Assembly (NCBI GenBank): GCA_026397315.1 | Contig: JAPLVC010000001.1 | Coordinates: forward strand, 149,111 to 213,110 | Length of the DNA stretch: 64,000 bases | Reading direction: 5' to 3' | Source: Candidatus Aenigmatarchaeota archaeon | GTDB taxonomy: Archaea; Aenigmatarchaeota; Aenigmatarchaeia; QMZP01; QMZT01 | In this document: positions 9,151-29,483 of the stretch, piece by piece | Position numbering within the stretch: position 1 is the stretch's first letter | Layout: every line of letters starts with the position of its first letter | Translations under genes and position numbers: made by a program | Notes under the pieces: generated by a model | What the model was told of the DNA's origin: nothing | Database searches by the model: none | Seen by the model: the letters and a program-made list of their open reading frames with translations, nothing else

Positions 9151-9153
9151 ATT

Positions 9154-10384: not shown

Positions 10385-10783
10385 ATGACGAAAGAAGTTA
10401 TGAAAGGAAGAAGCATTTCGCCTGGGAAAGCGGAAGGCGAAGCGATAGTTTCGAAGACGCCGCTCGGATTCTACGGCGGCATCGATGCAAAAACGGGCAT
10501 CGTCATCGAGAAGGGTCATGAGCTTGAGGGAAAGAACGTCAAAGATAAGATTCTCGTTTTCCCCACAGGCAAGGGCTCGACGGTCGGCTCTTACGTCATA
10601 TATGGACTGAAAAAGAACGGCGTCGCTCCCAAGGCGATAATCAACAAGGAGACGGAAACCATCGTCGCTACGGGCGTGATTCTCGCCGACATACCGTGCG
10701 TCGACCAGATAGACATAGAGAAGCTGAACACGGGCGACAGGCTGAAAGTCGACGCAACGAAGGGAACGGTAGAGCATGCGTGA
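10385..10783 (+). CDS. aconitase-X-type dehydratase, small subunit (DUF126)
   Basis: MTKEVMKGRSISPGKAEGEAIVSK...LVFPTGKGSTVGSYVIYGL. The start is chosen at the ATG after GGTGA. Confidence 0.75.
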   Translation: MTKEVMKGRSISPGKAEGEAIVSKTPLGFYGGIDAKTGIVIEKGHELEGKNVKDKILVFPTGKGSTVGSYVIYGLKKNGVAPKAIINKETETIVATGVILADIPCVDQIDIEKLNTGDRLKVDATKGTVEHA

Positions 10784-11348
10784 CGCTTCAGAAAAGGAAA
10801 GAATCATAGTCGGCATTTCAGGCAGTTCATGCGCCATCCTTGGCGTGCGCTTTCTCGAGGTCGCAAAAAAGCTCGGCTTGGAGACGCATCTCGTCATAAG
10901 CGAGACTGCTGAGAAAATCATAGAGCACGAAACCGGTCGCAAGGTCAGCGACGTCAGAAAGCTCGCGACTAAAGCTTATGGCTACCGCGACCTTTTCGCT
11001 GCGATAGCGTCCGGCTCTTTTCAGACGAAGGGCATGGTCATAATACCGTGCAGCATGAAAACGCTAGCAGGCGTTGCCAGCGGTTATTCCGACAACCTGA
11101 TGTTACGGGCGGCGGACGTTTGTCTTAAAGAACGGCGAAAGCTGGTGCTGGTCGCGCGCGAGACGCCTCTGAGCCTGATACACATCGAGAACATGAAACG
11201 CGTTACGCTCGCTGGAGGCGTAATCCTGCCACCTGTCATGACGCTCTATGCGAAACAGAAAAGCATAGAAGACCTTACGAATCACGTAATCGGCAAGACG
11301 CTCGACGTGCTCGGCATCGACAACAAGGTTTACAACAGGTGGAGCTAG
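10776..11348 (+). CDS. ubiX: flavin prenyltransferase UbiX
   Basis: IIVGISGSS...LVISETAEKII...MVIIPCSMKTLAG...SDNLMLRAADVCLKERRKLVLVARETP. Confidence 0.85.
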   Translation: MRDASEKERIIVGISGSSCAILGVRFLEVAKKLGLETHLVISETAEKIIEHETGRKVSDVRKLATKAYGYRDLFAAIASGSFQTKGMVIIPCSMKTLAGVASGYSDNLMLRAADVCLKERRKLVLVARETPLSLIHIENMKRVTLAGGVILPPVMTLYAKQKSIEDLTNHVIGKTLDVLGIDNKVYNRWS

Positions 11349-11383
11349 AGACGCTTTTTAAGCCAAAAACGGAATTGATATTC

Positions 11384-12163
11384 ATGAAAAACCTGATATT
11401 CGTCAAGCTTGGCGGCTCGCTGATAACCGACAAGTCGAGGCCATACACCGCAAGGCATGATGTAATCAGAAGGCTATGCAGAGAAATACATGAAGCACGC
11501 TCGGACAAGGATTTCCCGCTGCTCGTCGGCCACGGCGGCGGCAGCTTCCCGCACGTATCCGCGAAGAAATACGAGACGCACAAAGGCGCTATTCGCAGCG
11601 ACAGCTGGGAAGGCTTCGCGAAAGTCCAGGACGACGCCGCGCGCCTGAACAGGATAGTCGTCTCGTCGCTCATGGAAGCGGACGAATACGCGGTTTCGAT
11701 ACAGCCGTCAGCATCGTGCTCGGCAAGGAATGATCGTATTATCAAATGGCACATGACGCCCATAGAAGTCGCGCTCTCAAAGGGTCTCATACCCGTGCCG
11801 CACGGCGACGTGTGCGTCGACGATGTGAAAGGATGCTGCATCATATCCACGGAAGAGATACTGGGCTTCCTAGCGAGAAAGCTCAGGCCAGAGCGCATAA
11901 TCATGGCAGGCAAGACCGACGGAGTGCTGGGCCCGCTGGGAGAGACGATAAAGCGGATTGACAGGAAAAATTACGCGGAGATTATCGACTCGCTCTCCTC
12001 GTCGGACGGCGTCGCGGACGTGACCGGCGGCATGGCGCAGAAAGTGAAGATGTCGCTAGCGATGGGTTGCGAAGTCGAAATAATAAACGGCCTCAAACCA
12101 GGCGAGCTGAAAAGAGCGCTGCTCGGGGAGAGAGGATTGGGAACTATAATTAGCGGAAAATGA
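11384..12163 (+). CDS. ipk: isopentenyl phosphate kinase (amino-acid kinase fold)
   Basis: LIFVKLGGSLITDK...LLVGHGGGSFPH. The start was moved to MKNLIF. Confidence 0.85.
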   Translation: MKNLIFVKLGGSLITDKSRPYTARHDVIRRLCREIHEARSDKDFPLLVGHGGGSFPHVSAKKYETHKGAIRSDSWEGFAKVQDDAARLNRIVVSSLMEADEYAVSIQPSASCSARNDRIIKWHMTPIEVALSKGLIPVPHGDVCVDDVKGCCIISTEEILGFLARKLRPERIIMAGKTDGVLGPLGETIKRIDRKNYAEIIDSLSSSDGVADVTGGMAQKVKMSLAMGCEVEIINGLKPGELKRALLGERGLGTIISGK

Positions 12164-13182
12164 TTGTTATGTCTTCTGACAAAAAATCCGTCACCAAGTC
12201 GCGCAAGGACGATCACATACGCATATGTCTCGAGAAAAACGTCGAGTTCGCGAAGTCGAACGGCTTCGACCGCGTCGAGCTGGAGCACAGCGCGCTGCCG
12301 GAGATTGAGAGAAGCGACATCGATTTGTCCACCAGATTCATGGGAAAGAAGTTCCGCTACCCGCTTTTCATAGAGGCGATAACAGGAGGAACGGCACAGG
12401 GCGAGCGCATAAACAAGAATCTCGCTGCTGCGGCAGAAGCGCTTGGAATTGGAATGGGCGTCGGCTCGCAGCGCGCGATGTTGGAGGACGCGAAAGCTAC
12501 GAGAACGTATTCTGTTCGCGACGTCGCGCCCAGCATTTTTCTTCTCGGCAACATAGGCGCGGCGCAACTGAGGAAATACGATACGTCTCGTGTGCTGGCG
12601 CTGGTCGACGCGATAAAGGCCGACGGGCTAGCGATTCATCTCAACGTCGCGCAGGAACTCGCTCAGAAAGAAGGGGATAAATCATGGAAAGGCGTTTTCG
12701 ACGACATAAAGGCGCTGTGCGCCAAATCGAAAGTTCCGATAATCGCTAAAGAAACCGGCTGCGGCATTTCGGGAAAGCTGTCTGAAGCGCTCGTATCAGC
12801 GGGTGTGAAGGCGATAGACATCGCGGGCGCGGGCGGCACGTCGTGGGTCAAGGTCGACAGCCATCGGACTGACGATGATGTGAGTCACATCGAGGAATGG
12901 GGCATCCCGACGGCGCGGGCGCTGAAGGACGTGGCTGGTTCGGTCGAAGTTCCGATAATCGCTTCCGGCGGCATACGCAACGGCGTCGAGGTCGCTAAGG
13001 CGATAGCGATGGGAGCTTCGCTGGTCGGAATGGCGCTGCCGCTGCTGAAACCAGCGACCGAGTCGTCTGAAAGCGTGAGAAAGCACCTGGAAAAAATAAT
13101 TTCACAACTGGAAGACGCGATGTTCCTTGTCGGCGCGAGGAACGTGTCCGAGCTGAAGAAAGTGAAAGTACTTTACGCATGA
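12160..13182 (+). CDS. fni: isopentenyl-diphosphate delta-isomerase, type 2 (FMN-dependent)
   Basis: RKDDHIRICL, PLFIEAITGG, a TIM-barrel FMN-binding C-terminus (IIASGGIRNGVEVAKAIAMGA). Confidence 0.85.
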   Translation: MIVMSSDKKSVTKSRKDDHIRICLEKNVEFAKSNGFDRVELEHSALPEIERSDIDLSTRFMGKKFRYPLFIEAITGGTAQGERINKNLAAAAEALGIGMGVGSQRAMLEDAKATRTYSVRDVAPSIFLLGNIGAAQLRKYDTSRVLALVDAIKADGLAIHLNVAQELAQKEGDKSWKGVFDDIKALCAKSKVPIIAKETGCGISGKLSEALVSAGVKAIDIAGAGGTSWVKVDSHRTDDDVSHIEEWGIPTARALKDVAGSVEVPIIASGGIRNGVEVAKAIAMGASLVGMALPLLKPATESSESVRKHLEKIISQLEDAMFLVGARNVSELKKVKVLYA

Positions 13183-13990: not shown

Positions 13991-14551
13991 ATGCTGAAAG
14001 CCCAGAGCACGAAGGACGGAATAGAGAAGGGCGACGCGGAAAAAGCCATAAAGGAAAACGAGATTATCCTGTTCCTGCTGCCCAACCAGAGCTACTCCGA
14101 CAAGATAAAAGTCGTCGCCGGCGCGGCCGCAAAGACCGGCCAAAGGATATGCTACGTGGCGGCTAACAAGCCTTCAGAAGTACTCTCAAAGGATTTCGAC
14201 AAGAACAAGATCGATATAGCCAAGTTCTATTTCGTGGACTGTGTCACCAAAAGCCTCAAGAATAGCGAGAAAGTCGTCTACGTCTCGTCGCCTAAAGCGC
14301 TCACAGAGATAAACATAGCGCTGAAAAAGATGATAGAGTCGTCTAAAGCGGATATGACGCTTTTCGACTCGCTTTCCACGCTTCTCATATACGAGGACTC
14401 GCACGTCGTCATACGCTTCGTCCACTCGATAATATCGGCTTTCAGGACCATGAAGTCGAAAGGTATTCTAATATCTCTCAAGGAAGAGACGCAGAGCGAG
14501 CTGATAAAAGATTTGAATATGTTCGTTGACAAGGTAGTAGAGTTGGGTTAG
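13991..14551 (+). CDS. KaiC/RecA-like domain protein lacking a Walker A motif (pseudo-ATPase)
   Basis: The RecA-fold layout (..ICYVAANKPSEV...FVDCVT...LFDSLSTLLIY...GILISL) is kept, but the P-loop is replaced by LPNQSYSDK. A paralog sits at 24008..24577. Confidence 0.55.
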   Translation: MLKAQSTKDGIEKGDAEKAIKENEIILFLLPNQSYSDKIKVVAGAAAKTGQRICYVAANKPSEVLSKDFDKNKIDIAKFYFVDCVTKSLKNSEKVVYVSSPKALTEINIALKKMIESSKADMTLFDSLSTLLIYEDSHVVIRFVHSIISAFRTMKSKGILISLKEETQSELIKDLNMFVDKVVELG

Positions 14552-14565
14552 CTGCTGGTGTGTTA

Positions 14566-17500
14566 ATGGCGGTCGGGGTAAAGGGTAAAAAACAAAAGTT
14601 TAGCTGCGGGGATGCATTGCTGGAAAAAATCAGGCAATGCGCTCCCATAGTTGACGTTTTCCCCGACATAGCTTATTTTAAGGACCTGGATCACAGGAAC
14701 GTTTTCATAAACAAGGCATTCGAGAAATTTGCCGGCCGCAAAAAGAGCGATATCGAAGGTAAGCGCGACGACGAGATTCTGCCGAAGGAGCTGGCACGCC
14801 AGTGCATGAAAAGCGACGACGCCGTCAGGAACGGGAAGCCCGTGCACACCGATGAGGCGCTCACGGACAAAGACGGCAAGACTGCATTCTTCGACACCAT
14901 GAAATTCCCCCTGAGGGACGGGGAAGGCCGGATAATAGGCCTCATGGGCATAAGCCGCGAAATCACCGAAAAGAAGCGCGATGAGCATGAGCTCAGGGAA
15001 AGCGAGGCTTCATACAGAGCCATAGCCGACAACATCCCGGGCATTGTTTACAGGATTCATCTCGAGGGTGAAAAAAGCTTCACGGAATTTTTCAACGAGA
15101 ACGTGCAGACGCTTGCAGGTTATCCGCCGGAGAAGCTCAGTGGCGGCAGGTGCCCGATGGATCCGCTAATAGTCAGCGAAGACAGAAAAAATGTGATAGA
15201 GACCATCGCAAATGCGATAAAGAAAGGGCAGCCGTTCAAGGTGGAATATCGCATAAAGAACAAGAAAGGCGATATCCGCTACTTCGCGGAAAGGGGCAGG
15301 CCCATATTTGACGAGAAAATGAAAGCCGAGCACATAGACGGCGTCATTTTTGACGTGACCCAGAGCAAAAAGGCCGACGACGCCTTCAGAAACGTCATGG
15401 ACCAATACAAGTATCTCTATGATGAAAGCCCCGCCGTCAACATAATAGTCGGCAACAACGGCAAAATAATGGACATAAACAGGAAATCTGCGCAGGCGAT
15501 AGGATACAAAAAAGAAGAACTCGTAGGCAAAAGTATTTTCGACCTGATGACTGCGTCCGATATAAAGAAAGCACTGACAGTCCTTAAAGACAGTATCATG
15601 AACAAGTACACACCAGAGATGGAGCTGGCTATAAAATCAAAAGACGGTTCTATAAGAAGGCTGCTTCTTTCCGAAGGCGGCACGCCAATTTACGATAAAG
15701 GGAAAGCTGTCGGAGTGCTGGTCACGGGCATGGACATAACGGAACGCAAGAAAGCGGAAGAGTTGACAAGGCAAAACGAGGAAAAATACAGGAGTATAAT
15801 CGAGCTGGCTCCGGATGGCATAATCTCCGTGAGCCTGAAAGGAACGGTGACAGCGTGCAATTCGGCCTTCGAAAAACTCACCGGATATTCAAAGGAGGAG
15901 ATTGTAGGCAAGCATTTCACCAGTCTCCCGACCATCAACAAGAAGGACATGCCGAGCTACATAAAATTGTTCACTTCCATCATCAGGGGTAAAATTCCGG
16001 AGTCATTCAAGTTCGAATGGAAACACAAAAACGGCTCCTTGCACATGGGCGAAATCCGCGTTGGCCTGATGAAAAGCGGTAACAAAATAACCGGAATGCA
16101 GGCATTCATAAGTGACATAACAGAAAGATTGATGGTAGAAAAAAGGGCTAAGGAGGACGAAGATAAATACAAGTTCCTGGTCGACAGTATGCAGGAGATA
16201 GCAATTATTCTCAGCAAAACCGGAACGATACTGTTCGCCAACAGGTCTGCCCTTGAAACGCTGGGCTATACTGAAGAGGAGGTTATAGGCAAATCCATCG
16301 TTTCTTTCCTCACGAAAGGCTCGCTCAAGAAAGCCTTATATGCGCTCGCGCAGGAATTCCTCGGCAAACATCAGGAGGAGATGGAAGTCGAGGTCAAAAA
16401 CAAAAAAAGCGAGATAAGGACTTTGCTGATTGCCGAGTCATCAAACCCCATTCACAAAGACGGGAAAATGATCGGGATTCTGGTGAACGCCCGCGACATC
16501 ACTGAGCAGAAAAAGACCAATGAATTGCGCAGGGAAAGCGGGGAACAATTCAGAAAGCTCTTCAACGAGATGCCAGACGCCGTCATCATCCTTGACAAGA
16601 AGGGGACGTTGCTTGAAATGAGCAAAGAAGCTGAAAAGATAAGCGGCTATCCGAGGAATGAATTGATAGGCAGAAACATCTTCGCCACACGTATCCTTGA
16701 CATGAAGACGAAGGCGCTCACTATCAGAAAACTGGCCCTGCATTTTTCCGGCGAAAGTGTTCTGCCATTCGAAGTCAAAATCTACAGGAAAGATGGTGGC
16801 ACCGTCCCGCTTGAAATAAAGCCGCAGATGATTGATTACATGGGAAAGGAGGCTGACCTCATAGCTCTCAGGGACCTCACCGAACGCAAGATAGCTGAGG
16901 CTGCAGTCAGCGAGAACGAGGAAAGGTATAGGATACAGTTCGAAGAGGCGCTGGACACTATTGTAATAGCCAACGCGAAAACAGGCATAATAGTTGACTG
17001 CAACCGCGCAGCAACACAGTTGGTCGGGAGAGACAAGTCGGAGCTTATCGGGCAGCATCAAAGAATACTCCATCCGCCAGAAGATACCAAAGGTCAGTTC
17101 AGCGAGACATTCAAAAAACACATAAGCGTTGCCAAAGGCCAACCATTGGAAGCGCGGATTATCACCAAAAGCGGGGAAATAAAGTTCGTTACCATAAAGG
17201 CCAACCTGATTGAAATGAGGGGTGAAAAATTAATTCAGGGAATATTCAGGGACATTACCGAATGGAAAAGAGTGGAAAACGAGTTGAGAAAGAGTGATGA
17301 ACGCTTCAGGCAGATCACCGAAAATGCTTACGAGTGGGTATGGGAAGTTGACACCAACGGTGTGTATACCTATTCGAACACCATAATTGAAAGGATACTT
17401 GGCTACACATCTGATGAGCTTGTTGGTAAGGTACATTTTTACGATTTATTTGCTCCCGATGTGAAAGAGCAGTTAAAGAAAGCGGCCCTTGAAACCTTCG

Positions 17501-18183
17501 CCAAAAAACAACCTATCAGGGGGTTTATAAACCAGAACCTGCACAAGAACGGCAATATGATCATACTTGAAACGAATTGTGCGCCGATCCTTGATGAAAA
17601 AGGCCGCCTCTTGGGCTACCGTGGCGCTGATACGGACATCACCGAACGCAAAAAGACGGAAGATATTATCAAAGAAAGCGAAAGCAGATACAAGCTGATG
17701 GCCGAGCAAACAGGGCAGGTAATTTATGATTATGAGATTGCATCCGGCGCCATTAAATGGTCCGGGGCGATAATGAATATCACCGGTTACACGCCAGAAG
17801 GGTTGCAAAAAATGGGTATAAAAGAATGGGGGGAATCAATCCATCCGGATGATTCCAAGAATGTCTCGGAACTCCTAGACAAAGCAATTAAGCAATGTAC
17901 GAAATTCGACAGTGAATACAGATTCATGCGTAAGGATGGCAGTTACGTGTACGTCGAGGATAGGGGCATCGTGCTAAAAGATGCGAAAGGTAAGCCATAC
18001 CGCATGCTCGGTACCATGAAAGACATTACTTACAGGAAAAAGGCGGATGATGAAATAAAAAATAGGACAGAGGAACTCGAGCGCTTCAACCGTCTCGCCG
18101 TCGGCAGGGAGTTGAAAATGATCGAGCTTAAAAACAGGATTGAGGATCTGGAAAAAAAGCTCAGGGAAAATAAGGATGCATGA
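14566..18183 (+). CDS. multi-PAS/PAC sensor protein without a recognisable output domain
   Basis: About 1200 aa of repeated PAS-PAC units (repeated DITERKKAEE / DITEQKK junctions). The C-terminus is a coiled coil ending ELERFNRLAVGRELKMIELKNRIEDLEKKL. No HisKA or HATPase domain is seen. Confidence 0.8.
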   Translation: MAVGVKGKKQKFSCGDALLEKIRQCAPIVDVFPDIAYFKDLDHRNVFINKAFEKFAGRKKSDIEGKRDDEILPKELARQCMKSDDAVRNGKPVHTDEALTDKDGKTAFFDTMKFPLRDGEGRIIGLMGISREITEKKRDEHELRESEASYRAIADNIPGIVYRIHLEGEKSFTEFFNENVQTLAGYPPEKLSGGRCPMDPLIVSEDRKNVIETIANAIKKGQPFKVEYRIKNKKGDIRYFAERGRPIFDEKMKAEHIDGVIFDVTQSKKADDAFRNVMDQYKYLYDESPAVNIIVGNNGKIMDINRKSAQAIGYKKEELVGKSIFDLMTASDIKKALTVLKDSIMNKYTPEMELAIKSKDGSIRRLLLSEGGTPIYDKGKAVGVLVTGMDITERKKAEELTRQNEEKYRSIIELAPDGIISVSLKGTVTACNSAFEKLTGYSKEEIVGKHFTSLPTINKKDMPSYIKLFTSIIRGKIPESFKFEWKHKNGSLHMGEIRVGLMKSGNKITGMQAFISDITERLMVEKRAKEDEDKYKFLVDSMQEIAIILSKTGTILFANRSALETLGYTEEEVIGKSIVSFLTKGSLKKALYALAQEFLGKHQEEMEVEVKNKKSEIRTLLIAESSNPIHKDGKMIGILVNARDITEQKKTNELRRESGEQFRKLFNEMPDAVIILDKKGTLLEMSKEAEKISGYPRNELIGRNIFATRILDMKTKALTIRKLALHFSGESVLPFEVKIYRKDGGTVPLEIKPQMIDYMGKEADLIALRDLTERKIAEAAVSENEERYRIQFEEALDTIVIANAKTGIIVDCNRAATQLVGRDKSELIGQHQRILHPPEDTKGQFSETFKKHISVAKGQPLEARIITKSGEIKFVTIKANLIEMRGEKLIQGIFRDITEWKRVENELRKSDERFRQITENAYEWVWEVDTNGVYTYSNTIIERILGYTSDELVGKVHFYDLFAPDVKEQLKKAALETFAKKQPIRGFINQNLHKNGNMIILETNCAPILDEKGRLLGYRGADTDITERKKTEDIIKESESRYKLMAEQTGQVIYDYEIASGAIKWSGAIMNITGYTPEGLQKMGIKEWGESIHPDDSKNVSELLDKAIKQCTKFDSEYRFMRKDGSYVYVEDRGIVLKDAKGKPYRMLGTMKDITYRKKADDEIKNRTEELERFNRLAVGRELKMIELKNRIEDLEKKLRENKDA

Positions 18184-18186
18184 ATA

Positions 18187-19944
18187 ATGTTAAACTTTTA
18201 CTCGCTGCTGCCGTTTTCGGCGTTGCTGACAAACCTGGTTTTCGGGATATTCATACTCTACATAGACCCGAAGAGCAGGCTCAACAGGCTATACAGCCTT
18301 TTCACGCTTTCCTTTGCCTTCTGGGCCTTGGGCGATTTCATGGTTTTCATGGCATACGACCAGGGAAGCTCGCTTTTCTGGGCAAAAGCCGCCTCGGTCG
18401 GCTCTACACTTTCTGCAGCTTTCGCCATAAACTTCTTCGTGCTTCTGACGAAGAACAGGCTGGCAAACAGCAAGCTCATGCTGCTTTTTTACGTGCCTGC
18501 GGCGGCGTTCTCTTTGCTATCGCTCGGCACCGACCTTATAACAAAGGGTACGAAGCCCGTTCCGTGGGGCCTGTTGCAGTTAAGGGGACCGCTTTACATC
18601 CCGATGACCCTTTTCATTGTGGCGTGCATGGTGGCGAGCATAATCCTTTGCTACATGTATTATCGCCGCACGGAAAAACAGGATGAAAGAAAACAGATGA
18701 GGATCATGATCATTGGCACGTCAATACCGCTTTTCGGCGGCATCGTGACGCAGATTGTCCCGATCATAATGGGCTTCGAAATGATTCCGCTGTCTTCGAC
18801 GCTCTCGATAATCATAGTGGTGGCCGCCGCGCTCGGCGTCATGCGCTACAGGCTCATGACACCCGTGTCTTTCAGCATCCGCAAGAAGATAATAGTTTCA
18901 ATCATGGTGGCGAGCATAATACCGCTCCTCATGCTGAGTCACGTTTCTATATCGAGCATCAGCTCTCTCGGTTTGATGCACACCGAGCACATGGACACCA
19001 TAAGCAACTTTTCCATAAACGAAACTGTTCATTCGCTGGAAGCGCTTGGCGCCGAAATGGTAAAGCAGAAGGCATTCGACGTCTCGAACCAGATAGGTAT
19101 TTTCATCAGTAAGTCGCCCCAGATGACCGAAGAACAGATGAAAAACAACGCTGAGCTTGCATCGATAGCTGTCCAGCGCGTCGACAAAACTGGTTACACT
19201 GCCGTGCATAACAACAAAGGCATCAACCTGTTCCATTCCAATCCAAATATCATAGGCTCAGATCTTACGAAGCTGAATTTGACGGGCTTCAGGGAGATAG
19301 TGCAAAAAAGCCTGAGTCAGGAGGCGTATGGCTATTACGACTGGAAGGAAAGCGACGGCAGCATAAGGCAAAAATACATGCACTGCGTTCCCGTAAAGAT
19401 GACAGGCTTGGTAGTGTGCGCAACAACATACATAGACGAGTTTTCCGAGCCTTCGGATGCTGCGATGAAAAGACTGAACAATGCCACAAAGCAACACATA
19501 CTTGATGAAAAAGATGTCCAGGCCGCGCTCCTCGTCACCATAGGCGCGATGCTAATCCCGATGGTGGCGATAATGATAATTATTACGTACCTGCTCACCG
19601 GAGCCCTTTCCAAACCCATACTAAAGCTCACAGATGCGATGAAAAAGATAAGCGGTGGCAACCTCGACGTGAAAATAGAAGTGAAAGAAGGCGACGAGAT
19701 AGGCCAGCTTGCTTCATCTTTCAAACAGATGCTTGAGGAACTGAAAACTTCAAAAATCAAAATAGAAGAGCATAGCAAGACGCTGGAGAAAGATGTCGAG
19801 GATAGGACTAGTCAGCTCGAGGATAAAGTGAGCGAGCTGGAGAGGTTCAGCAAGCTGGTCATAGGCAGGGAGCTTAAGATGGTGGATCTCAAGAAAAAAT
19901 TAAAGGAAGTTGAGGATAAGCTGAAGAGCAAGGAGAATAAATAA
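18187..19944 (+). CDS. membrane sensor: N-terminal multi-TM module, extracytoplasmic domain, HAMP, C-terminal coiled coil; no kinase domain
   Basis: Eight predicted TM helices, a ~190-aa extracytoplasmic domain, a further TM helix, a HAMP domain (ILKLTDAMKKISGGNLDVKIEVKEGDEIGQLASSF) and a coiled coil ending ELERFSKLVIGRELKMVDLKKKL. Confidence 0.7.
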   Translation: MLNFYSLLPFSALLTNLVFGIFILYIDPKSRLNRLYSLFTLSFAFWALGDFMVFMAYDQGSSLFWAKAASVGSTLSAAFAINFFVLLTKNRLANSKLMLLFYVPAAAFSLLSLGTDLITKGTKPVPWGLLQLRGPLYIPMTLFIVACMVASIILCYMYYRRTEKQDERKQMRIMIIGTSIPLFGGIVTQIVPIIMGFEMIPLSSTLSIIIVVAAALGVMRYRLMTPVSFSIRKKIIVSIMVASIIPLLMLSHVSISSISSLGLMHTEHMDTISNFSINETVHSLEALGAEMVKQKAFDVSNQIGIFISKSPQMTEEQMKNNAELASIAVQRVDKTGYTAVHNNKGINLFHSNPNIIGSDLTKLNLTGFREIVQKSLSQEAYGYYDWKESDGSIRQKYMHCVPVKMTGLVVCATTYIDEFSEPSDAAMKRLNNATKQHILDEKDVQAALLVTIGAMLIPMVAIMIIITYLLTGALSKPILKLTDAMKKISGGNLDVKIEVKEGDEIGQLASSFKQMLEELKTSKIKIEEHSKTLEKDVEDRTSQLEDKVSELERFSKLVIGRELKMVDLKKKLKEVEDKLKSKENK

Positions 19945-19966
19945 TAATTTTATGGAGGGTGATAAT

Positions 19967-20746
19967 ATGAATAAATTTTTGATTTCGGCGCTGTGCATTT
20001 TGCTTGTCATCGGATTTTCGGGATGCACGCAGACAAACTTGAATGGAAGCGGCTCATCTCTGTTAAAATTGAAAGAGCCGGGCAAACTTATAATAGGCAC
20101 GAATTTGCCGTACGAACCAATGGAGTTCTACGACGCTTCGGGAAATATAGTTGGCATTGACGCGGATGTTGCAAAAGAAATCGCTTCGCAACTTGGGCTG
20201 GAGCTGGAAATAAGAAATGTTGACTGGGACAAGCTGTTCGAACAAGTGAAATCAGGCGATCTGGATATTATAATTTCATCTATATCTATAACAAATGAAA
20301 GGCAAAAGGAATATCTTTTTAGTGCGCCATATTTCAACGCAGGCCAGGTGGTTATCACCAAAAAGGGCAATACCGACATCAAATTCCCGGAGGACCTCAA
20401 AAACAAGAAAGTGAGCGCCCAGAAAGATACAACAAGCGCTGAAGAGGCTGCAAAATACTCGAACAGCTCTATAGTGTACGAAAACTCAGATTACGAAAAA
20501 ACTGTCGCTGACCTTAAAAATGGAAATTTAGACGCAATTGTCATGGATTATGTTGCCGGCATCATGCTGGTGAAGAACGACCAGTCACTTAAAATAGCTG
20601 TGGAACCTTTCACCCAGGAGTTTTACGGCATAGCCACGCAGCTAGGCAACACGGCACTCATGAATGAAGTGAGCAGAGTGCTCAGAAATATGAAGGAGAC
20701 AGGGAAGCTGGAAGAAATAAAAAATAAGTGGCTTAGCGAGACGTGA
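19967..20746 (+). CDS. periplasmic solute-binding lipoprotein (family-3 SBP)
   Basis: Signal peptide with lipobox (LVIGFSGC), then SBP_bac_3-like blocks (GTNLPYEPMEF...GIDADVAKEIA...DIIISSISIT). The start follows a GGAGGGTGA Shine-Dalgarno. Confidence 0.75.
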   Translation: MNKFLISALCILLVIGFSGCTQTNLNGSGSSLLKLKEPGKLIIGTNLPYEPMEFYDASGNIVGIDADVAKEIASQLGLELEIRNVDWDKLFEQVKSGDLDIIISSISITNERQKEYLFSAPYFNAGQVVITKKGNTDIKFPEDLKNKKVSAQKDTTSAEEAAKYSNSSIVYENSDYEKTVADLKNGNLDAIVMDYVAGIMLVKNDQSLKIAVEPFTQEFYGIATQLGNTALMNEVSRVLRNMKETGKLEEIKNKWLSET

Positions 20747-20801
20747 AATGTTTGGATCTGGCAGTGCTTTGAAAAATAACAAAGATAAGTGGCTCGGGTA
20801 A

Positions 20802-22493
20802 ATGAAAATAAACATATCGCTGAAGATAATCGGGGTAGTTTTTTTGCTTTTTTTACTCGTTTTTATAATCATCGCTTACAACAACATCATAATCTATGAG
20901 AACGATGTGACAGGCTACTTCATAGAAAAAGCTAAAGCTATTGCATATTCCATCGAAGCTGGCATAAAGAACAGGGAAACCCTGAGCAAAAAGGATGAGA
21001 TGTTGTCCAGCATCCATAAAATCATGTGGCTTAATTCTGAAATTGTAGATATAACATACGTCACAAGTAGCGAAAGCGGGCTGGTAAATTACATATCAAA
21101 CGACCCCGAAAGAAACGGTGTCGAGCCCGAACCTGAAAATTATGAAGCGTTCGAAAAGGATATCGTGATAAGCAAGATTTACACTCGGGGATATTCAGCC
21201 ATGCTTAAAATCGTATCACCTCTTCACATCTCTGGGCAGGTTGTCGGCACCGTGCAGTTGGATTTTACCATGGAAAGCATTAATGGTAAAATAACAGCTG
21301 TCAGAAACTCCCTCATCGTGGGTTATCTTATGTTAATGATCACTTCCGCTGTTCTGTTGTTCTTTTTGCTGAGAATACTAGTCATAAAACCTATTCAAAA
21401 AATAAACAAAGGCGTTGAATCTGTATCGTCTGGCAAGCTGGACTACAGCGTCGATATAAAATCCAATGACGAGATAGGCAATTTATCAAAAGCTTTCAAT
21501 AGGATGGTAAACGATCTTAAGCAATCCAACGACCAGATAAAAAGGCACGAGCATGATCTCGAAGAAAAGGTAAGCGAAAGGACCAAGGATCTTGACTCCA
21601 AAGTGGGCGAGCTCACGGATACGAAGACGGCGATACTCAACATGATGGAGGACATGGACGATGCCAACAGGAACCTTATGACGATGCAGGACGAGCTCAG
21701 GAACAGCCTCAAGGAACTGAAGGAAAGCGACATCAAGAAGGACGAATTCATATCGATAGCGGCGCACGAGCTGAAGACGCCACTGACATCGATACACGGT
21801 TTCTCTCAGCTGATGCAGAACAAGGACGTCATAGAAAACAAGGAAAGGAGGGGAAAATATCTGGGTATAATGGAGCATGAGACCACGCGCCTGGCAAAGC
21901 TCGTGACCGACATCCTCGACCTTTCAAGAATTGATCTTGGAACGCTTAAAATGGCGATAGAAGAGGTCGATGTTTCGTCGCTTATAGACGACGTGAGCAA
22001 GGAACTCAACATACAGATGAAGTCCCATGGTCTCGAGTCTGAATACATCATAGAAAAGGACCTGAAAATGATGACGGACATGGAGAGGCTTACACAGATA
22101 GTGATAAATCTCATAAACAACTCCATCAAATACACGCCGAAAGGCAAGATAACCGTGAAGGCATGGAAAGACGGCGGCGACTTCCATTTCATGGTCAAGG
22201 ACACGGGTATAGGCATACCGAAGGACAAGCAGCACCACATCTTCCAGAGGTTCTATCAGGTCGATTCTTCATACACCAGGTCAGCTGGAGGCGTCGGCCT
22301 CGGCCTTTCTCTATGCAAGGAGTTCGTGAACGTCCTCGGGGGCAAGATATGGTTCGTGAGCCAGGAAGGCAAGGGAAGCGAGTTCCACGTCACTCTGCCC
22401 ATGAAGAAAACTGTCGCGCCCGGTATATTTGACGTGAAAGCAAAGGCGGCAGAAATCCTCAAGAAGTCTGAAAAAATCACGAAAGGAAAATAA
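20802..22493 (+). CDS. sensor histidine kinase (TM-periplasmic-TM-HAMP-HisKA-HATPase)
   Basis: H-box AAHELKTPLTSI and N, G1 and G2 boxes (DTGIGIPKDKQHHIFQRFYQ...GGVGLGLSLCKEFV). Confidence 0.85.
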   Translation: MKINISLKIIGVVFLLFLLVFIIIAYNNIIIYENDVTGYFIEKAKAIAYSIEAGIKNRETLSKKDEMLSSIHKIMWLNSEIVDITYVTSSESGLVNYISNDPERNGVEPEPENYEAFEKDIVISKIYTRGYSAMLKIVSPLHISGQVVGTVQLDFTMESINGKITAVRNSLIVGYLMLMITSAVLLFFLLRILVIKPIQKINKGVESVSSGKLDYSVDIKSNDEIGNLSKAFNRMVNDLKQSNDQIKRHEHDLEEKVSERTKDLDSKVGELTDTKTAILNMMEDMDDANRNLMTMQDELRNSLKELKESDIKKDEFISIAAHELKTPLTSIHGFSQLMQNKDVIENKERRGKYLGIMEHETTRLAKLVTDILDLSRIDLGTLKMAIEEVDVSSLIDDVSKELNIQMKSHGLESEYIIEKDLKMMTDMERLTQIVINLINNSIKYTPKGKITVKAWKDGGDFHFMVKDTGIGIPKDKQHHIFQRFYQVDSSYTRSAGGVGLGLSLCKEFVNVLGGKIWFVSQEGKGSEFHVTLPMKKTVAPGIFDVKAKAAEILKKSEKITKGK

Positions 22494-22506: not shown

Positions 22507-23325
22507 TTATTTCTTATCTTGTTTTTTACCCATCGCGCTTGCGCCAGCCTGTTGCGCGGCTTCAAAAAGCCTGGTAATGACCACTCTGTTATATATGAAA
22601 CCGGTAGCCATCAGGATGTAGTCCATGTTCCAAAGTATGTCTATAATGTTTCCGGTCTCATAACTGCCGAGAATATAAGAATATATTATATCAGCGCACG
22701 TGCTCAGCATCAACGCGAAGAATATTACAGACCATGGCTTGATGAATTTGCTGTCCCACAGGTAAGTCAGGCCGAAAGCCATTGAAATAAGCAGGAACAT
22801 GTCTTCTGCAATGTATCCGGCCGAAGCCGCTTTCTCCAACAAAGGAGTTTCAGTATCTGCTGCAAATGGTGCAATAAGAAATATTGAAACCACCGCTATC
22901 GCTATCACAACGGACAGCAATATCCACTTTTTTCTGCCGAGCTTCGATGACGAAAGCTTGCATATGAAAAACATGCCGGCGATGAAAAACGCGTAGCCCG
23001 CATACCAGAAAATATCGGCTATCGACACGACTGGCTTGAAGTCAGTAAATATCTCCAGAACTCCCCATGTTATTTCACCCAGAGTCCAGAATGCCGTCCC
23101 TACCGCGATGAATAACATCGCTTTTCCCTGCTCGCTCTTGAAGCCATGTATCTTGAAGGCGAAAAAGCCGGCCAGCGTGGCCATTATCGCCAGCGCGGCC
23201 ACCCACACGTCTGCGATGACGTAAAATGAGTCGCCCAACGGCCGGAAGGCGAAAAGCGCCAGATTTATTACCAACAGAGCAACGAGAATCGAAAGCCCGA
23301 GATATTTCATATTTTCTAATTTCAT
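22507..23325 (-). CDS. integral membrane protein (7-8 TM), unknown function
   Basis: Hydrophobic helices throughout. It is the last gene of the pseudo-KaiC / response-regulator operon. Confidence 0.6.
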   Translation of the reverse strand: MKLENMKYLGLSILVALLVINLALFAFRPLGDSFYVIADVWVAALAIMATLAGFFAFKIHGFKSEQGKAMLFIAVGTAFWTLGEITWGVLEIFTDFKPVVSIADIFWYAGYAFFIAGMFFICKLSSSKLGRKKWILLSVVIAIAVVSIFLIAPFAADTETPLLEKAASAGYIAEDMFLLISMAFGLTYLWDSKFIKPWSVIFFALMLSTCADIIYSYILGSYETGNIIDILWNMDYILMATGFIYNRVVITRLFEAAQQAGASAMGKKQDKK

Positions 23326-23343: not shown

Positions 23344-23574
23344 TCATTTGATATATTTCCTGTAAAGCGGATCCATCTTTTTCTTGGCCGCGCACACGCC
23401 TATGAACTTCCCGAGAAAGTCGGTACACTCGTCCAGGAAGTCCTTCGGGTATTTTTCAGGATCATCAAAATTTTTCAGCTGTTCGGATACTACAGAACCT
23501 AGCAACTTGTCAAATACTGATTTAGCTTCTTCTTTCAGTGCCATGGTATCGGCCTGTAATATAAAATGGTTCAT
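23344..23574 (-). CDS. small hypothetical protein
   Basis: 76 aa. The start overlaps the response-regulator stop (ATGA). Confidence 0.4.
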   Translation of the reverse strand: MNHFILQADTMALKEEAKSVFDKLLGSVVSEQLKNFDDPEKYPKDFLDECTDFLGKFIGVCAAKKKMDPLYRKYIK

Positions 23575-23951
23575 CCTATCATTTTCTTGACCCTTTTGAC
23601 GAGGTCGTCGTTGTCAAAGGGCTTGTTTATGTAGTCAAGCACTTTCATTTCCTTGAGGATGTCCTTGCCAGCTTCGGAGAACTTGGCCACGGTTAGAAAA
23701 GCGATTTTCAGGCCCCTGGTCTTCGGGTCTTTCCTTATCTTGTCGCACACCTCGCGGCCGCTCATGCCAGGCATCATCATGTCCAGAAGTATGAGATCCG
23801 GTGACATTGTTTTGAGCTTATTCAGGCAATCCTCGCCATCCGATGCTGTGGCCACGTCGTATCCCTCATGCTCGAGCACGGCAGAGACAAGCTCCCTAAG
23901 GCTTTCCTCGTCGTCGACTACGAGAATCTTCTTTTTTGTCATATTTAACAT
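23571..23951 (-). CDS. response regulator receiver protein (CheY-like, single domain)
   Basis: KILVVDDEE...DLILLDMMMPGMSG...KIAFLTVAKF. Confidence 0.85.
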   Translation of the reverse strand: MLNMTKKKILVVDDEESLRELVSAVLEHEGYDVATASDGEDCLNKLKTMSPDLILLDMMMPGMSGREVCDKIRKDPKTRGLKIAFLTVAKFSEAGKDILKEMKVLDYINKPFDNDDLVKRVKKMIG

Positions 23952-24007: not shown

Positions 24008-24577
24008 TCACCCGAAATTTATCGTCTTGTCCGCGAACATGCCCAGATCCTTCATGAGCTTATCGTTCTCCTCCTGCGGTATGGTGTCCTGCTTCAGGAG
24101 GATGAAGAGCTTTTTGACGTTCTCTTTCGTATCGTCCGACATGATGCTGTGGGTGAAGCTCACGACCGACGACGTCTGCTGGTAAATGAGGAGCGTGGAT
24201 ATCGTGTCGAAAAGTATGACGCTGCAGCTCTTTTTCTCGACCGCTTCCTTTATCGCCACCCGTATGGCGGCAAGGTCGCGTGGTGAACGCACGAAAAAGC
24301 AGTCCTTGCACGGCTCGGGGTCGTGGTAATGCGACGTGAGCACGTCTATGAAGAAGAAATCCGACAGATTGAACCCCTGCTTCGAAAGCTCCTCTTTGAC
24401 GTCTTTGACGGGCTTGCTGAGGCACACGTAGCATATTTTCGTCTTTGTCTTCTCCACGCCATTGATTATCTCTTCCATGCGAGCTGTGTATTCGCTCTCC
24501 TCCATCATGATGATGAGGAACCTGTTGCTAGTGATTTCCTTGATGAGGTCCAGTACCATTATTGTAATTAGCGGCAT
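24008..24577 (-). CDS. KaiC/RecA-like domain protein lacking Walker A (paralog of 13991..14551)
   Basis: LFDTISTLLIYQQ aligns with LFDSLSTLLIYED of the paralog, and the C-terminal KDLGMFADK matches KDLNMFVDK. There is no GxxGxGKT. Confidence 0.55.
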   Translation of the reverse strand: MPLITIMVLDLIKEITSNRFLIIMMEESEYTARMEEIINGVEKTKTKICYVCLSKPVKDVKEELSKQGFNLSDFFFIDVLTSHYHDPEPCKDCFFVRSPRDLAAIRVAIKEAVEKKSCSVILFDTISTLLIYQQTSSVVSFTHSIMSDDTKENVKKLFILLKQDTIPQEENDKLMKDLGMFADKTINFG

Positions 24578-25457: not shown

Positions 25458-26513
25458 GTGATGTGCTGCATAACGTTCAACTGGAAGGAGAACGATGCCG
25501 TGGAAAAGGTGGAGCATTTCAGGCGAAAGCGCACGGTTTCTTGGGCGGTGGTCGAGGTGACCGAGGCGTGCAACCTGAACTGCAAGTGGTGCTACGCCTC
25601 TTCCAGCTACAAAAACAAAAATGCCGGGTTCATGCGGGAAGACGAAATAATCTTCATCCTCAACAGGCTTTCCGAAGCCGGAGCGAGGCAGGTCACGTAT
25701 TCGGGCGGCGAGCCGAGCATTTACCCGCACCTTGATTTTGCCATAAAGGAGGCGAAGGAGCGCGGCATGGTCGTGCACGTGAACACGAACGGCTACATGC
25801 TGACGAAAGGCCTCGCTGCGAAATGGGCCGGGCTCGGAGTTACACAGGTCCAGGTGAATATCGACAGCACGGACGCAGCGAAGCATGACGAAATCCGCGG
25901 CAGGGCTGGCTCCTTTTCCCGCGCATTGAAAGGAATAGGCAACACTGCCGCAGCCGGCATTACGCCGGTTTCGCAAACCGTGCTGACCAGTGAAAACGAA
26001 GGAGAGGTAATGCGCATCATATGCTTGGCCAGAAAAGCGGGCGTCGAGCGCGTCAGGTTGTGGGACATGATGCTTTCGGGCCATGCGCAGGACAGGAGAG
26101 ACATGCTCCCGGCCAGATATCTTGAAATACTCAAGGAGGTTTCAGAATACGCCCTGCAGACCGGCGCGAAAAGCATAGAAGCCGGCGAGCCGCTCTTCCC
26201 TCTCGGATACGAAACTGGCATGAAAGTGATGGATTCTTTCTGCGTATGCCTCGCCGGGCTTCTCGCCAATTTCTCGGTCAGCGGCGATGCTTACTTCTGC
26301 TGCATGCACAGGAAGCCGCTATACAATGTATTCAAAGACGCGGCGGAGGAGCGACTGGACGGGCTTCATGCAAGAAAAATAAGGGAATTCTCGGACCGCT
26401 TTAGCCTGCCAGAAAAATGCGTCAAATGCGACGTGCTTGGAAAATGCATGGGAGGCTGCATCGCCAGGAGAGGCTTCACGCCAGACGGCAGGGACTACTG
26501 GTGCACTGAATAG
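25458..26513 (+). CDS. radical SAM protein with a C-terminal SPASM/twitch Cys cluster
   Basis: CNLNCKWC (CxxxCxxC) and a C-terminal CVKCDVLGKCMGGC...C auxiliary-cluster motif. Confidence 0.8.
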   Translation: MMCCITFNWKENDAVEKVEHFRRKRTVSWAVVEVTEACNLNCKWCYASSSYKNKNAGFMREDEIIFILNRLSEAGARQVTYSGGEPSIYPHLDFAIKEAKERGMVVHVNTNGYMLTKGLAAKWAGLGVTQVQVNIDSTDAAKHDEIRGRAGSFSRALKGIGNTAAAGITPVSQTVLTSENEGEVMRIICLARKAGVERVRLWDMMLSGHAQDRRDMLPARYLEILKEVSEYALQTGAKSIEAGEPLFPLGYETGMKVMDSFCVCLAGLLANFSVSGDAYFCCMHRKPLYNVFKDAAEERLDGLHARKIREFSDRFSLPEKCVKCDVLGKCMGGCIARRGFTPDGRDYWCTE

Positions 26514-27519: not shown

Positions 27520-28188
27520 CTATATTATTTTTGTGTCTGTCATCCTGATTTCTTTGGGGTCTATGACAATCTCATGGGGCACTTTCGGGTCGAAGCGCGC
27601 GTATCTCATCTTGTGGATGGTCATGATTCTCTGGGGCTTTTCCTCAAGCTCCAGGAACGAGAGCGAAAGCACGCCGTCGCACTCGAATGATTCTCCGTTG
27701 CCCGTGTCTATGTGCTCGCCTCTCGTCTCGCAGATAAGGAGCGTGCACCCCATCTGCTTGAGGCTTTTCACGAGCTCGTACAGGTGTATCCTGTAGGAGC
27801 GCTCGTTCTCAGCGAAGATGAGCAGCTTGTTGACGTTATCGATAACGAGACGGTCCAGCTTTGGATAGGAAGCGATTATGTCTATGAACTTCTTCATGGT
27901 GATGTTCTCGCCGAGCGGTATGTGCTCTATGGCGAAATTCTTGCCGACGTATTTCTCCATGGTGCTGAGCGTTTCGATGCCTTTGCTAGCGCGGAGAAGT
28001 TCTTCTTTCGTCTCGTTAAGCGAGACGTAGCAGCACCTTTCCTTTTTGAGGATGCCTTCCATGAGGAAATTCATGGCGAAGAGCGTCTTGCCGGAGCCAG
28101 GCCCGCCTGAAACAAGGACCGTCGTTTTCCCCGGGAAGCCGCCGCCAAGCAGCTTGTCCAGCTTCTTAATGCCAGTGCTCATCGTCAT
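27520..28188 (-). CDS. KaiC-like / RecA-superfamily ATPase (single domain)
   Basis: Walker A GGPGSGKT, Walker B LVIDNV, KLDKLLGGGFPGKTTVLVSG. Confidence 0.8.
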   Translation of the reverse strand: MTMSTGIKKLDKLLGGGFPGKTTVLVSGGPGSGKTLFAMNFLMEGILKKERCCYVSLNETKEELLRASKGIETLSTMEKYVGKNFAIEHIPLGENITMKKFIDIIASYPKLDRLVIDNVNKLLIFAENERSYRIHLYELVKSLKQMGCTLLICETRGEHIDTGNGESFECDGVLSLSFLELEEKPQRIMTIHKMRYARFDPKVPHEIVIDPKEIRMTDTKII

Positions 28189-28631: not shown

Positions 28632-29483
28632 ATGATTTTGCGCAAGAAGAAAAAACCGGCTTCTTCTGAAAAAATCAAGAAAGCCGAACCGGAAAAGGCG
28701 AAGCCCGTCGCTAGCGAGAAGCCGCTGTCTGCTAAGGCTAAGGAAAGCGAGAATTTCATAAAGACCGGCATAGAAGGCTTCGACGGCCTCATCGAGAAAG
28801 GCATACCTAAGGGGTCAGCGATACTCATAGCGGGCGGCGCAGGCTCGGGCAAGACCATCATGTGCCTCCAGATACTGGCGCACGCCGCCAAGAACGGCAA
28901 AAAGGGCTTTTACATGTCCTTCGAGGAGTCAGAATCGCGTCTTCGAAAACACATGGAGGATTTCGGGTGGAATGCGACTGAATACGAGAAGAAAGGCAAT
29001 CTCGTGATAAAGAGGATGAGCTCATACGAGATAGCGCGCGCGGTCGAGGGATTGCTAGCGAAGGAACGAGGCGAACTCCTTATCGACCTCGAGCCCATAC
29101 TCCTGCCGGACAACTATAAACCAGACCTTGTGGTCATTGACTCGCTGAGCGCGATTGCTTCGTATTTCATGGGCAAGACCGGCCAATACAGGAGTTACGT
29201 CGAACAGTTATTCAGGTATTTCGAGCGCATGGGGACGACTTCATTCATGATAGCGGAAACGAAACAAATCCCTGAGGTATTCAGCCCGACGGGTGTGGAA
29301 GAGTTCCTGGCTGATGGAGTCGTCGTGTTATACAACATCCGCAAGGGCGACATACGCGAGAACGCGATAGAAATACTCAAGCTCCGTGGCACGAAGCACG
29401 TAAAAAAGATAGTCGCCATGCAGATAGTCGACAATCAGGGCATAGCTGTCTACCCTGACCAGGAAGTCTTCGGCGGACTCTGA
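28632..29483 (+). CDS. KaiC-like / RecA-superfamily ATPase with a Lys-rich N-terminal extension
   Basis: GIEGFDGLIEKGIPKGSAILIAGGAGSGKT plus Walker B LVVIDSL. The first ~50 aa are a K/E/A/P-rich low-complexity region. Confidence 0.8.
   Translation: MILRKKKKPASSEKIKKAEPEKAKPVASEKPLSAKAKESENFIKTGIEGFDGLIEKGIPKGSAILIAGGAGSGKTIMCLQILAHAAKNGKKGFYMSFEESESRLRKHMEDFGWNATEYEKKGNLVIKRMSSYEIARAVEGLLAKERGELLIDLEPILLPDNYKPDLVVIDSLSAIASYFMGKTGQYRSYVEQLFRYFERMGTTSFMIAETKQIPEVFSPTGVEEFLADGVVVLYNIRKGDIRENAIEILKLRGTKHVKKIVAMQIVDNQGIAVYPDQEVFGGL

Follow-up and report, generated by a model that had tools for sequence, protein, structure and literature searches.

A conserved C-terminal tail on sensor proteins without output domains, encoded upstream of a histidine kinase in a Candidatus Aenigmatarchaeota genome

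How might a sensor protein that carries no output domain hand on what it senses? The question is raised by a locus in a stretch of 64,000 nucleotides (nt) of DNA from a Candidatus Aenigmatarchaeota archaeon (assembly GCA_026397315.1, contig JAPLVC010000001.1, positions 149,111 to 213,110), referred to below as the window, in which two sensors of this kind are encoded upstream of a complete histidine kinase. Genome surveys contain very many PAS/GAF/HAMP proteins and REC-PAS response regulators without a recognisable output, an open problem for archaea (PMC5847659, Galperin et al. 2018). A preliminary description, made from the letters of the window alone, had noticed five genes at this place, for a KaiC-like protein without a Walker A motif, the two sensors, a lipoprotein-type solute-binding protein (SBP) and the kinase, and had reported a C-terminal motif common to the two sensors. 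The five genes, their domains and the shared motif had all been placed correctly; the genes are co-directional on the plus strand, and the same gene calls are found in the public assembly of the same contig.

The first sensor (14566..18183, plus strand; 1205 amino acids, aa) is cytoplasmic and has nine PAS domains recognised by Pfam and NCBIfam. Pfam found nothing beyond these nine stretches, and a hydropathy scan gave no transmembrane (TM) segments. Translation could alternatively begin at a GTG at 14560; the public annotation starts the gene at 14566 and names the product just 'PAS domain S-box protein' (MCX6817392.1). The second sensor (18187..19944, plus strand; 585 aa) is a membrane protein consisting of a 7TM region (HisKA_7TM), a TM segment, a Cache domain that the preliminary description had overlooked, a further TM segment, HAMP, a signalling helix with EDRT at aa 538-541, and the shared terminal element; hydropathy indicates approximately nine TM segments. 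Pfam recognised no domain in it beyond HisKA_7TM, Cache and HAMP, and hence no output domain, and its NCBI name is just 'HAMP domain-containing protein'. The third sensor is the kinase (20802..22493, plus strand; 563 aa), which Pfam and inspection resolve into a TM segment, a periplasmic domain, a second TM segment, HAMP, a signalling helix, a stalk, HisKA (E 3.5e-18) and HATPase_c (E 3.2e-32), the last two identifying it as a histidine kinase. Its signalling helix carries SERT (nt 21573-21584), its acidic stalk reads AILNMMEDMDD (nt 21630-21662) and its H-box is HELKTP at aa 322-327 (nt 21765-21782). Neither of the other two sensors matched any HisKA family or HATPase_c in Pfam, in agreement with the earlier observation that both lack an output domain and that HisKA and HATPase are present in the third sensor alone. 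No protein of the window matched MCPsignal (PF00015) in Pfam.

Both kinase-less sensors end in the same element, called the tail here: ELERFNRLAVGRELKMIELKNRIEDLEKKLRENKDA followed by a stop in the PAS sensor (18073..18183, plus strand; matched by tail profiles A1 and A3), and ELERFSKLVIGRELKMVDLKKKLKEVEDKLKSKENK followed by a stop in the membrane sensor (19834..19944, plus strand). There is no histidine in either. The six-frame translation of the 64-kb window contains exactly two copies of GRELKM, at 18103 and 19864, each 20 residues ahead of a stop codon, and the shared motif is thus real. The tail is a helical segment of approximately 35 residues with the consensus ELERFN(R/K)LAVGRELKMIELKK(R/E)I. 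When it was used in a word-index protein search, 12 short proteins or fragments were returned, with a near-invariant ELERFNRLAVGRELKMIELKKEI. An exhaustive search with a tail profile over 1.84 billion cluster representatives gave 15,465 matches at E<=1e-3 and 3,428 at E<=1e-10. Among the best 150 matches the tail was at the very C-terminus in every case, with 14-53 aa (median 26) following GRELKM.

The genomic setting was studied in a scan with the exact peptide AVGRELKM, which yielded 264 confirmed places; the analyses described below use 80 retained loci. All 90 tail open reading frames (ORFs) of these loci end 12-33 residues past the core, and a hidden Markov model of the tail run against all ORFs of the retained loci detected no internal copies and none in kinases. 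The motif search thus produced thousands of tail carriers, with the tail C-terminal in all of the best 150 and in all 90 locus ORFs, a check that the preliminary description had proposed. About half of the 80 loci are archaeal (DPANN lineages, Methanosarcinales and anaerobic methanotrophs (ANME), Thermoplasmata, Hadesarchaea and Heimdallarchaeota) and the other half bacterial (Omnitrophota, CPR/Patescibacteria, Desulfobacterales, Nitrospirota, Chloroflexota, Rhodospirillaceae and others). The tail exists in two variants, a long one ending ...EINxLLxxLGkEPrYkIvge and a short one ending ...ELKKRIKELEekl, to which the window copies belong. Pfam analysis of 126 carriers found PAS in 103, REC in 12, PocR in 12, GAF in nine and HAMP in five, together with some Cache domains; HisKA, HATPase, GGDEF, EAL and MCPsignal were absent from the 25 most frequent of the 37 families matched.

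At the invariant residues of the tail every synonymous codon is in use, so it is the protein that is under constraint. Pfam, NCBIfam and the PDB hold no entry that covers the tail, as the preliminary description had supposed in saying that the motif belongs to no family that could be named. Tails searched alone gave nothing meaningful in Pfam at E<=10, a profile search against PDB sequences returned generic coiled coils alone (best E 0.31), and full-text motif and keyword searches of the searchable literature found no description of the tail, the motif search bringing up a single unrelated paper. We propose a GRELKM tail family with the core [LIV]-A-[VI]-G-R-E-L-[KR]-M-[IV]-[ED]-L-K, located 12-53 aa from the C-terminus of proteins that have sensor domains and no catalytic output. 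Both window proteins, the 150 best database matches and the 90 locus ORFs all have this form. The tail is therefore a conserved, strictly C-terminal module exclusive to proteins without an output domain, and we hold its existence and definition with high confidence. The profile matches, the locus ORFs and the codon usage together bear out the earlier view of the terminal helix as a dedicated module of output-less sensors, rather than an artefact of truncation.

Relatives of the window proteins reveal what the tail stands in for. Residues 1-264 of the window kinase (TM segment, periplasmic domain, TM segment, HAMP and the start of the signalling helix) are 42% identical to L061:9212-10147, a protein of 311 aa that ends in the tail, and the similarity stops at RTKEL. 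The 7TM-Cache-HAMP sensor of the window is in turn 32% identical over approximately 550 aa to a complete kinase of 816 aa (L005:10153-12603), and these two proteins part right after KV(S/G)EL. Locus L061 reverses the arrangement of the window, with the tail on the SBP-associated chassis and the kinase on the 7TM chassis. Thus the tail and the LNMMED-HisKA-HATPase core are interchangeable on the same chassis and are joined to it at the same position of the signalling helix; these swaps show that the tail sits where an output domain sits. Elsewhere, the Cache-HAMP part of the membrane sensor is joined to HisKA_3/HATPase, to SpoIIE or to MCPsignal as its output, or stands without any. Cache-HAMP proteins of approximately 322 aa (database matches P0275-P0288) end right after HAMP with neither tail nor output domain. 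They are a second, different class of output-less membrane sensor, and the tail is therefore not the sole way to lack an output domain.

The position of tail genes relative to kinase genes is strongly directional. Of 92 tail genes, 27 are followed on the same strand by a kinase gene in first place and 17 by one in second place; on the other side, a kinase never stands immediately before the tail gene and is second before it in four cases (binomial p=1.5e-9). In loci with at least 3 kb of flanking sequence, counted over three genes to either side, a co-directional kinase was found downstream in 35 of 61 and upstream in 5 of 45. The distance from tail stop to kinase start ranges from -20 to +44 nt, which is typical of translational coupling. 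Two to four tail genes precede a single kinase in 12 of the 80 loci, often interleaved with genes for lipoprotein solute-binding proteins. De novo clustering of neighbours over the 80 loci returned kinases (51), stand-alone receiver (REC) proteins (40), inactivated KaiC proteins, or iKaiC (14, archaeal only), and KaiC-like ATPases with Walker A (11); the stand-alone REC genes usually follow the tail gene at a distance of two or three genes.

A reverse test was made by scanning metagenomes with the stalk peptide AILNMME, a seed that contains no tail information. Twelve loci were confirmed, ten of them with upstream sequence, and in nine of these ten a strong tail gene (E 1e-18 to 1e-31) was present upstream, directly before the kinase or, in one locus, two genes before it. 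The operon link between tail gene and kinase thus holds in both search directions. The earlier suggestion that several sensors could feed one kinase fits the directional synteny, the reverse search and the 12 loci with multiple tail genes.

Two recurrent arrangements were seen in other tail loci. In L004:10157-13219, L040:5635-8776, L037:7755-9152 and L022:3341-4735 a lipoprotein-type binding protein (335-465 aa) is followed by a TM-HAMP tail protein (~300-430 aa), and several such units stand in one locus before a single kinase; the repetition suggests arrays of binding-protein-dependent transducers. In the CPR/Patescibacteria loci L034, L040, L058 and L072, tail proteins are paired with genes of ~200 aa that end ...ETKCMFxGDPYHEFLIRW (V4R-like by eye), and a 393-aa gene starting MIKAGVGRSNNPD (FIST-like by eye) precedes the downstream kinase.

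To compare the tail with the part of the kinase that it replaces, position tables were drawn up from 237 tails and 37 kinase stalks, numbered so that the arginine of GRE in the tail is residue 0. The two run in the same heptad register and have residues in common up to about -9 (L-17, K/R-14, E-11, L-10), after which they diverge. The tail continues from -7 as F-7, N-6, (K/R)-5, L-4, A-3, V-2, G-1, R0, E+1, L+2, K+3, M+4, I+5, E+6, L+7, K+8, and the stalk from -4 as A-4, I-3, L-2, N-1, M0, M+1, E+2, D+3 and then E+6, A/T+7, N+8. From the upstream xRT signature it is 14 or 21 residues to the tail arginine and 13 or 20 to the stalk asparagine; since this spacing is quantised, the two motifs occupy equivalent positions. 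In the membrane sensor of the window, direct reading places the GRE arginine 21 residues, or three heptads, past the arginine of the DRT signature.

Residue R0 of the tail falls on heptad position d, a polar core residue like the arginine of ERT in the known signalling helix (S-helix). Several hydrophobic residues lie off the a/d seam (L-4 at g, V-2 at b, L+2 at f, I+5 at b), and basic residues at g (K/R+3) and e (K+8) would be mutually repulsive if two tails paired in parallel; at g the stalk has an invariant aspartate (D+3). The off-seam hydrophobics and the like-charged g/e' residues thus favour hetero-association over a plain homodimer. From this pattern we infer a tail adapted to packing against a second helix, for which the acidic kinase stalk would be a good candidate. 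Among the kinases of tail loci, the set in which it was counted, the relaxed stalk motif A.xN[MIL][ML].D is present in 49 of 63, those of CPR and ANME included. Many tail-locus kinases (L064:10135-11931, L074-L076, L075 and L040:3617-5428) have tandem stalk units of the form A.LN[MI]LED, two copies ~28-35 residues apart, and no Pfam model was seen for the stalk unit.

We lean, by a small degree, towards reading the locus as a multi-input two-component system in which the tail is a trans-acting coupling helix from kinase-less sensors to the neighbouring kinase. The nine-PAS cytoplasmic sensor and the 7TM-Cache-HAMP membrane sensor would be two kinase-less inputs. In both, the tail continues the coiled-coil signalling helix in register and takes the place of the A.LNMMED stalk and HisKA-HATPase_c; it would act as the sensors' output by associating with the stalk region of kinase 20802-22493. 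A sensor dimer would present its tail to the stalk of the downstream kinase, biasing kinase or phosphatase activity, and several sensors could in this way modulate one kinase. The candidate contact would be between LAVGRELKMIELK of the tail and A.LNMMEDxD of the stalk, with K+8 facing D+3. Direct docking of this kind is a tentative proposal drawn from synteny and from the sequence register of the two helices. The kinase's own sensor domain would receive a periplasmic ligand from the SBP, and the kinase would then phosphorylate the stand-alone REC protein 23571-23951. In the archaeal lineage, REC and the iKaiC adaptors (13991-14551 and 24008-24577) may relay the signal to nearby KaiC-like ATPases. 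In this scheme we infer the physical contact of tail and stalk, the direction of regulation and the roles of REC and iKaiC from sequence and gene order.

The SBP itself (SBP_bac_3 in Pfam and NCBIfam; 19952..20746, plus strand; 264 aa) probably delivers ligand to the kinase encoded next, at its periplasmic domain. In L003, L006 and L061, too, this SBP gene stands immediately before the same TM-sensor-HAMP chassis.

Taken more broadly, the tail might be a universal bacterial and archaeal plug-in connector that wires any sensor chassis (PAS, GAF, PocR, Cache, HAMP, 7TM or REC-PAS) in trans to a kinase with a complementary acidic A.LNMLED stalk, a generalisation that we put forward as conceivable but would not rely on. 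If it is true, ordinary two-component systems would have many-to-one sensor assemblies like those of chemoreceptors, and a large share of the unassigned 'output-less' PAS and REC-PAS proteins would be explained.

Several observations weigh against a coupling of tail and kinase. In approximately 40% of the loci with enough downstream sequence no kinase is found within three genes, so that the coupling may be optional or may operate over a longer range. The 12 loci of the reverse test are relatives of the window system and phylogenetically non-independent. Pairing of xRT spacings between tail proteins and neighbouring kinases gave no clear relation, with few informative pairs, and the invariant tail residues give no covariation signal. 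The REC domain at the N-terminus of 12 of the 126 carriers would also suit a tail that serves as a response-regulator output on a non-kinase target. Finally, the ORF calls in the loci were crude, being the longest ORFs chosen by greedy selection.

Of the alternatives, the one that survives best is that the tail is a structural cap only, a coiled-coil end that forms homodimers or homo-oligomers and so keeps sensor dimers stable. The sensors would then act otherwise, by ligand buffering or PAS contacts, and the linkage to kinases would reflect common ancestry. The heptads of the tail do continue those of the signalling helix in register, the searches of PDB and Pfam yield generic coiled coils alone, and the sensor chassis are clearly derived from kinase chassis. 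However, approximately 20 residues are near-invariant across archaea and bacteria, exposed positions b, c, e, f and g included (conservation is 98% at G-1, 100% at E+1, 94% at L+2 and 98% at K+8), and this far exceeds the needs of a dimerisation zipper. The like charges at g/e' and the arginine in the core at d speak against a simple homodimer, and the one-sided gene order, in which stop and start codons overlap, suggests that the proteins are co-expressed and work in stoichiometric amounts. A role as cap alone is therefore unlikely in our view.

The KaiC-like genes of the locus bear on the next alternative. The first gene of the plus-strand operon, iKaiC1 (13991..14551, plus strand; 186 aa), lies 14 nt upstream of the PAS sensor gene and encodes a truncated protein of the RecA/KaiC fold without Walker A. 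In Pfam it scored 37 bits for DUF7504 (PF24336; cut-off 27) and 30.5 bits for KaiC (PF06745; cut-off 26.6), and nearly all of its homologs (n=106) belong to PF24336 and come mostly from DPANN archaea. According to an AlphaFold2 model (pLDDT 91.5, pTM 0.87) it has a RecA-like alpha/beta core fold; the best Foldseek matches of the model were KaiC and the RecA-superfamily ATPase PH0284, with probability 1.0 and query-normalised TM-scores of 0.64-0.71. The loss of Walker A noted in the preliminary description was seen again on alignment, where LPNQSYSDK replaces the GGCGTGKT or GSCGTGKT of KaiC-like proteins in related loci. All nine iKaiC sequences of alignment A5 have lost this motif, both window paralogs included. 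The hhhhD element is kept in iKaiC1 (MTLFD, with D126 invariant), and its KaiC-like domain lacks approximately the last 50 residues. The second paralog, iKaiC2 (24008..24577, minus strand; 189 aa), is 32% identical to iKaiC1 and has weak Pfam matches to DUF835 and KaiC. It is adjacent to the stand-alone REC gene (23571..23951, minus strand; Pfam Response_reg, E 6e-29), whose product is likely to be the phospho-acceptor of the window kinase. This adjacency recurs in L002, L003, L005, L007, L022 and L037, and the pair looks like a split version of known REC-DUF835 regulators.

Inactivated KaiC domains (DUF835, MEDS) have been listed, with reference to Makarova et al. 2017, among the REC-associated output domains of archaea (PMC5847659). 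The window proteins resemble the known iKaiC (DUF835, MEDS, DUF7504) in their RecA/KaiC fold, their loss of Walker A and their ties to REC and kinase genes, and differ from them in being stand-alone proteins of 186 and 189 aa rather than fusions. The P-loop-less KaiC of the window is thus an already-known kind of protein, not a novel class, and the statement that it belongs to no nameable family has to be withdrawn in favour of DUF7504 (PF24336) and the iKaiC domains (PMC5847659). Its co-transcription with tail sensors was not found reported in the literature searched.

The tail could then dock on the receiver or on iKaiC instead of the kinase, the sensors being scaffolds or targets after phosphorylation, or direct inputs to a KaiC hub. 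Stand-alone REC genes are present in 40 of the 80 loci, archaea have fused REC-iKaiC response regulators (PMC5847659), and in the window and at least seven further loci (L004, L037, L048, L082, L083, L085 and L086) a gene of iKaiC1 type is directly before the first tail gene and translationally coupled to it. Against this, iKaiC is found in just 14 of the 80 loci, all of them archaeal; the other 66, among them every bacterial locus, have the same tail sequence without it. It is therefore unlikely to be a general partner of the tail, and the proposal of the preliminary description that the adjacent pseudo-KaiC might be the target does not hold in general. As to the receiver, REC follows the kinase in most two-component operons and its presence is unspecific. 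Positional equivalence and charge complementarity lie with the kinase stalk, and docking on REC or iKaiC appears quite unlikely.

It is improbable that the tail is a degenerate first helix of the dimerisation and histidine phosphotransfer domain (DHp) in which arginine has replaced histidine (AVGRELKM compared with VVSHELRT) and which would serve the kinase as a pseudo-substrate or poison subunit. Tail and H-box look alike by eye, and non-enzymatic archaeal kinase-like proteins that have HisKA without HATPase have been described (PMC5847659), of which tail proteins would be further-decayed forms. However, a match of F to F and R to H needs a one-residue indel, and the homologous chassis show that what is replaced is the stalk, upstream of the DHp, and not the DHp itself. 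Alignment of 68 tails with 22 DHp segments by hhalign gave a probability of 1.4%, with the arginine not aligned with the histidine; the HisKA families of Pfam did not match the tails at E<=10, and a likeness to HisKA_3 (ERxRIARELHD) was without Pfam support. The described 'HisKA, no HATPase' proteins share with tail proteins their PAS/GAF sensors, the loss of kinase activity and a presumed role in two-component systems; they keep HisKA with its conserved histidine (PMC5847659), and tail proteins have neither.

A nucleic-acid-binding output similar to a basic leucine zipper (bZIP), with N-x2-A-V-x-R preceding the zipper, is very improbable. It has in its favour a superficial likeness to the bZIP signature N-x2-AA-x2-(C/S)-R and the fact that archaeal response regulators mostly have no DNA-binding outputs (PMC5847659). 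Against it, the motif has a net charge of no more than ~+2 and follows directly on an acidic region, polytopic membrane proteins are frequent among the carriers, the searches matched no bZIP model, and the genes are syntenic with kinases. That the two sensor genes are kinase fragments created by frameshift or assembly error, which the preliminary description had named as the case that would undo it and for which the full-length kinase homologs of both chassis might speak, can practically be dismissed, as the next genes begin 3 and 7 nt past the sensor stops and leave no room for kinase remnants, the public assembly has the same gene structure, and the motif is widespread, with a distinct conserved tail and stop in hundreds of loci under selection at the protein level.

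The coupling helix proposed here has likenesses to several known systems. The S-helix is a helical segment of ~40 aa with a central ERT signature that lies between two signalling domains (PMC1592074, Anantharaman, Balaji and Aravind 2006). Like the tail, it is a parallel coiled coil following HAMP or PAS, with a polar arginine at core position d (ERT in one, GRE in the other), and the tail lies two or three heptads beyond the upstream xRT signature of the S-helix, in the same register. Unlike the S-helix, the tail has GRE in place of ERT and a near-invariant sequence of its own, and it is always terminal rather than between domains, replacing the downstream output.

Kinases are modulated in trans by partner proteins in RetS-GacS, Sda/KipI-KinA, FixT-FixL, LuxP-LuxQ and TorT-TorS. 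As in these three-component systems, the tail sensors would be separately encoded sensing proteins that modulate a kinase, and the SBP beside the window kinase resembles a periplasmic co-sensor of LuxP/TorT type. The known systems are each idiosyncratic, whereas the tail is one short module on thousands of unrelated sensor architectures in bacteria and archaea. Many chemoreceptors are coupled to CheA by the kinase-control tip of methyl-accepting chemotaxis proteins (MCPs), in which diverse inputs (PAS, Cache, HAMP, 7TM) likewise converge on one extremely conserved helical interaction region and one kinase serves many receptors; MCP homologs exist for the Cache-HAMP part of the window membrane sensor. 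The tail differs from an MCP in having no MCPsignal domain, no hairpin and no CheA or CheW genes; it is a single helix of ~35 aa, and its partner would be a classical HisKA kinase. Trans-acting accessory sensors of kinases are a known kind; a single conserved connector in thousands of sensors from both domains of life appears to be new.

The tail module would give output-less sensors a concrete and testable output, and the partner kinase, encoded just downstream, could be predicted from genome context alone. The modular wiring of many inputs to one kinase might be reused in synthetic signalling. The tail, which source annotations never name, can be converted at once into a domain model for annotation. 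The placing of iKaiC adaptors in a defined DPANN operon is a starting point for the proposed KaiC signalling hub.

Apart from the Cache domain, the preliminary description had overlooked iKaiC2, the stand-alone REC, a 66-aa ORF, a 272-aa membrane protein and two intact KaiC-like ATPases. The multi-pass membrane protein of 272 aa (22507..23325, minus strand) is encoded by the last gene of a convergent minus-strand operon, has no Pfam match and is syntenic in L002, L003, L004 and L082. Next to it is the conserved 66-aa ORF (...DFLDECTDFLGKFIG...; 23344..23544, minus strand), also without Pfam match, which is a gene call in L001 and has small homologous ORFs in L002-L004. The synteny of both with the kinase is kept in L002-L004 and L082. 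The two KaiC-like ATPases have intact Walker A motifs, GGPGSGKT in the first (27520..28188, minus strand; Pfam KaiC, E 3e-38) and GGAGSGKT in the second (28632..29483, plus strand; Pfam KaiC, E 9.5e-56). Beside them is an ORF of 337 aa without Pfam match (26495-27508, minus strand), and a similar ORF of 336/337 aa occurs in L037 and L054.

Further from the signalling genes, positions 5922-13182 of the window contain a gene cluster of the archaeal modified mevalonate pathway, which is notable for a metagenome-assembled genome of DPANN (Aenigmarchaeota). Its members encode a GHMP kinase, UbiD-like and LpdD-like proteins, the large and small subunits of AcnX, a flavoprotein, an AA_kinase similar to isopentenyl phosphate kinase and an FMN-dependent IDI2-like protein. 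The GC content of the window is ~0.50 outside two low-GC stretches, one at 4-6 kb (0.35) and the other at 38-42 kb (0.41-0.43), and the latter contains a gene (39406-42360, minus strand) for a protein of 984 aa with Ig-like and GDSL lipase domains.

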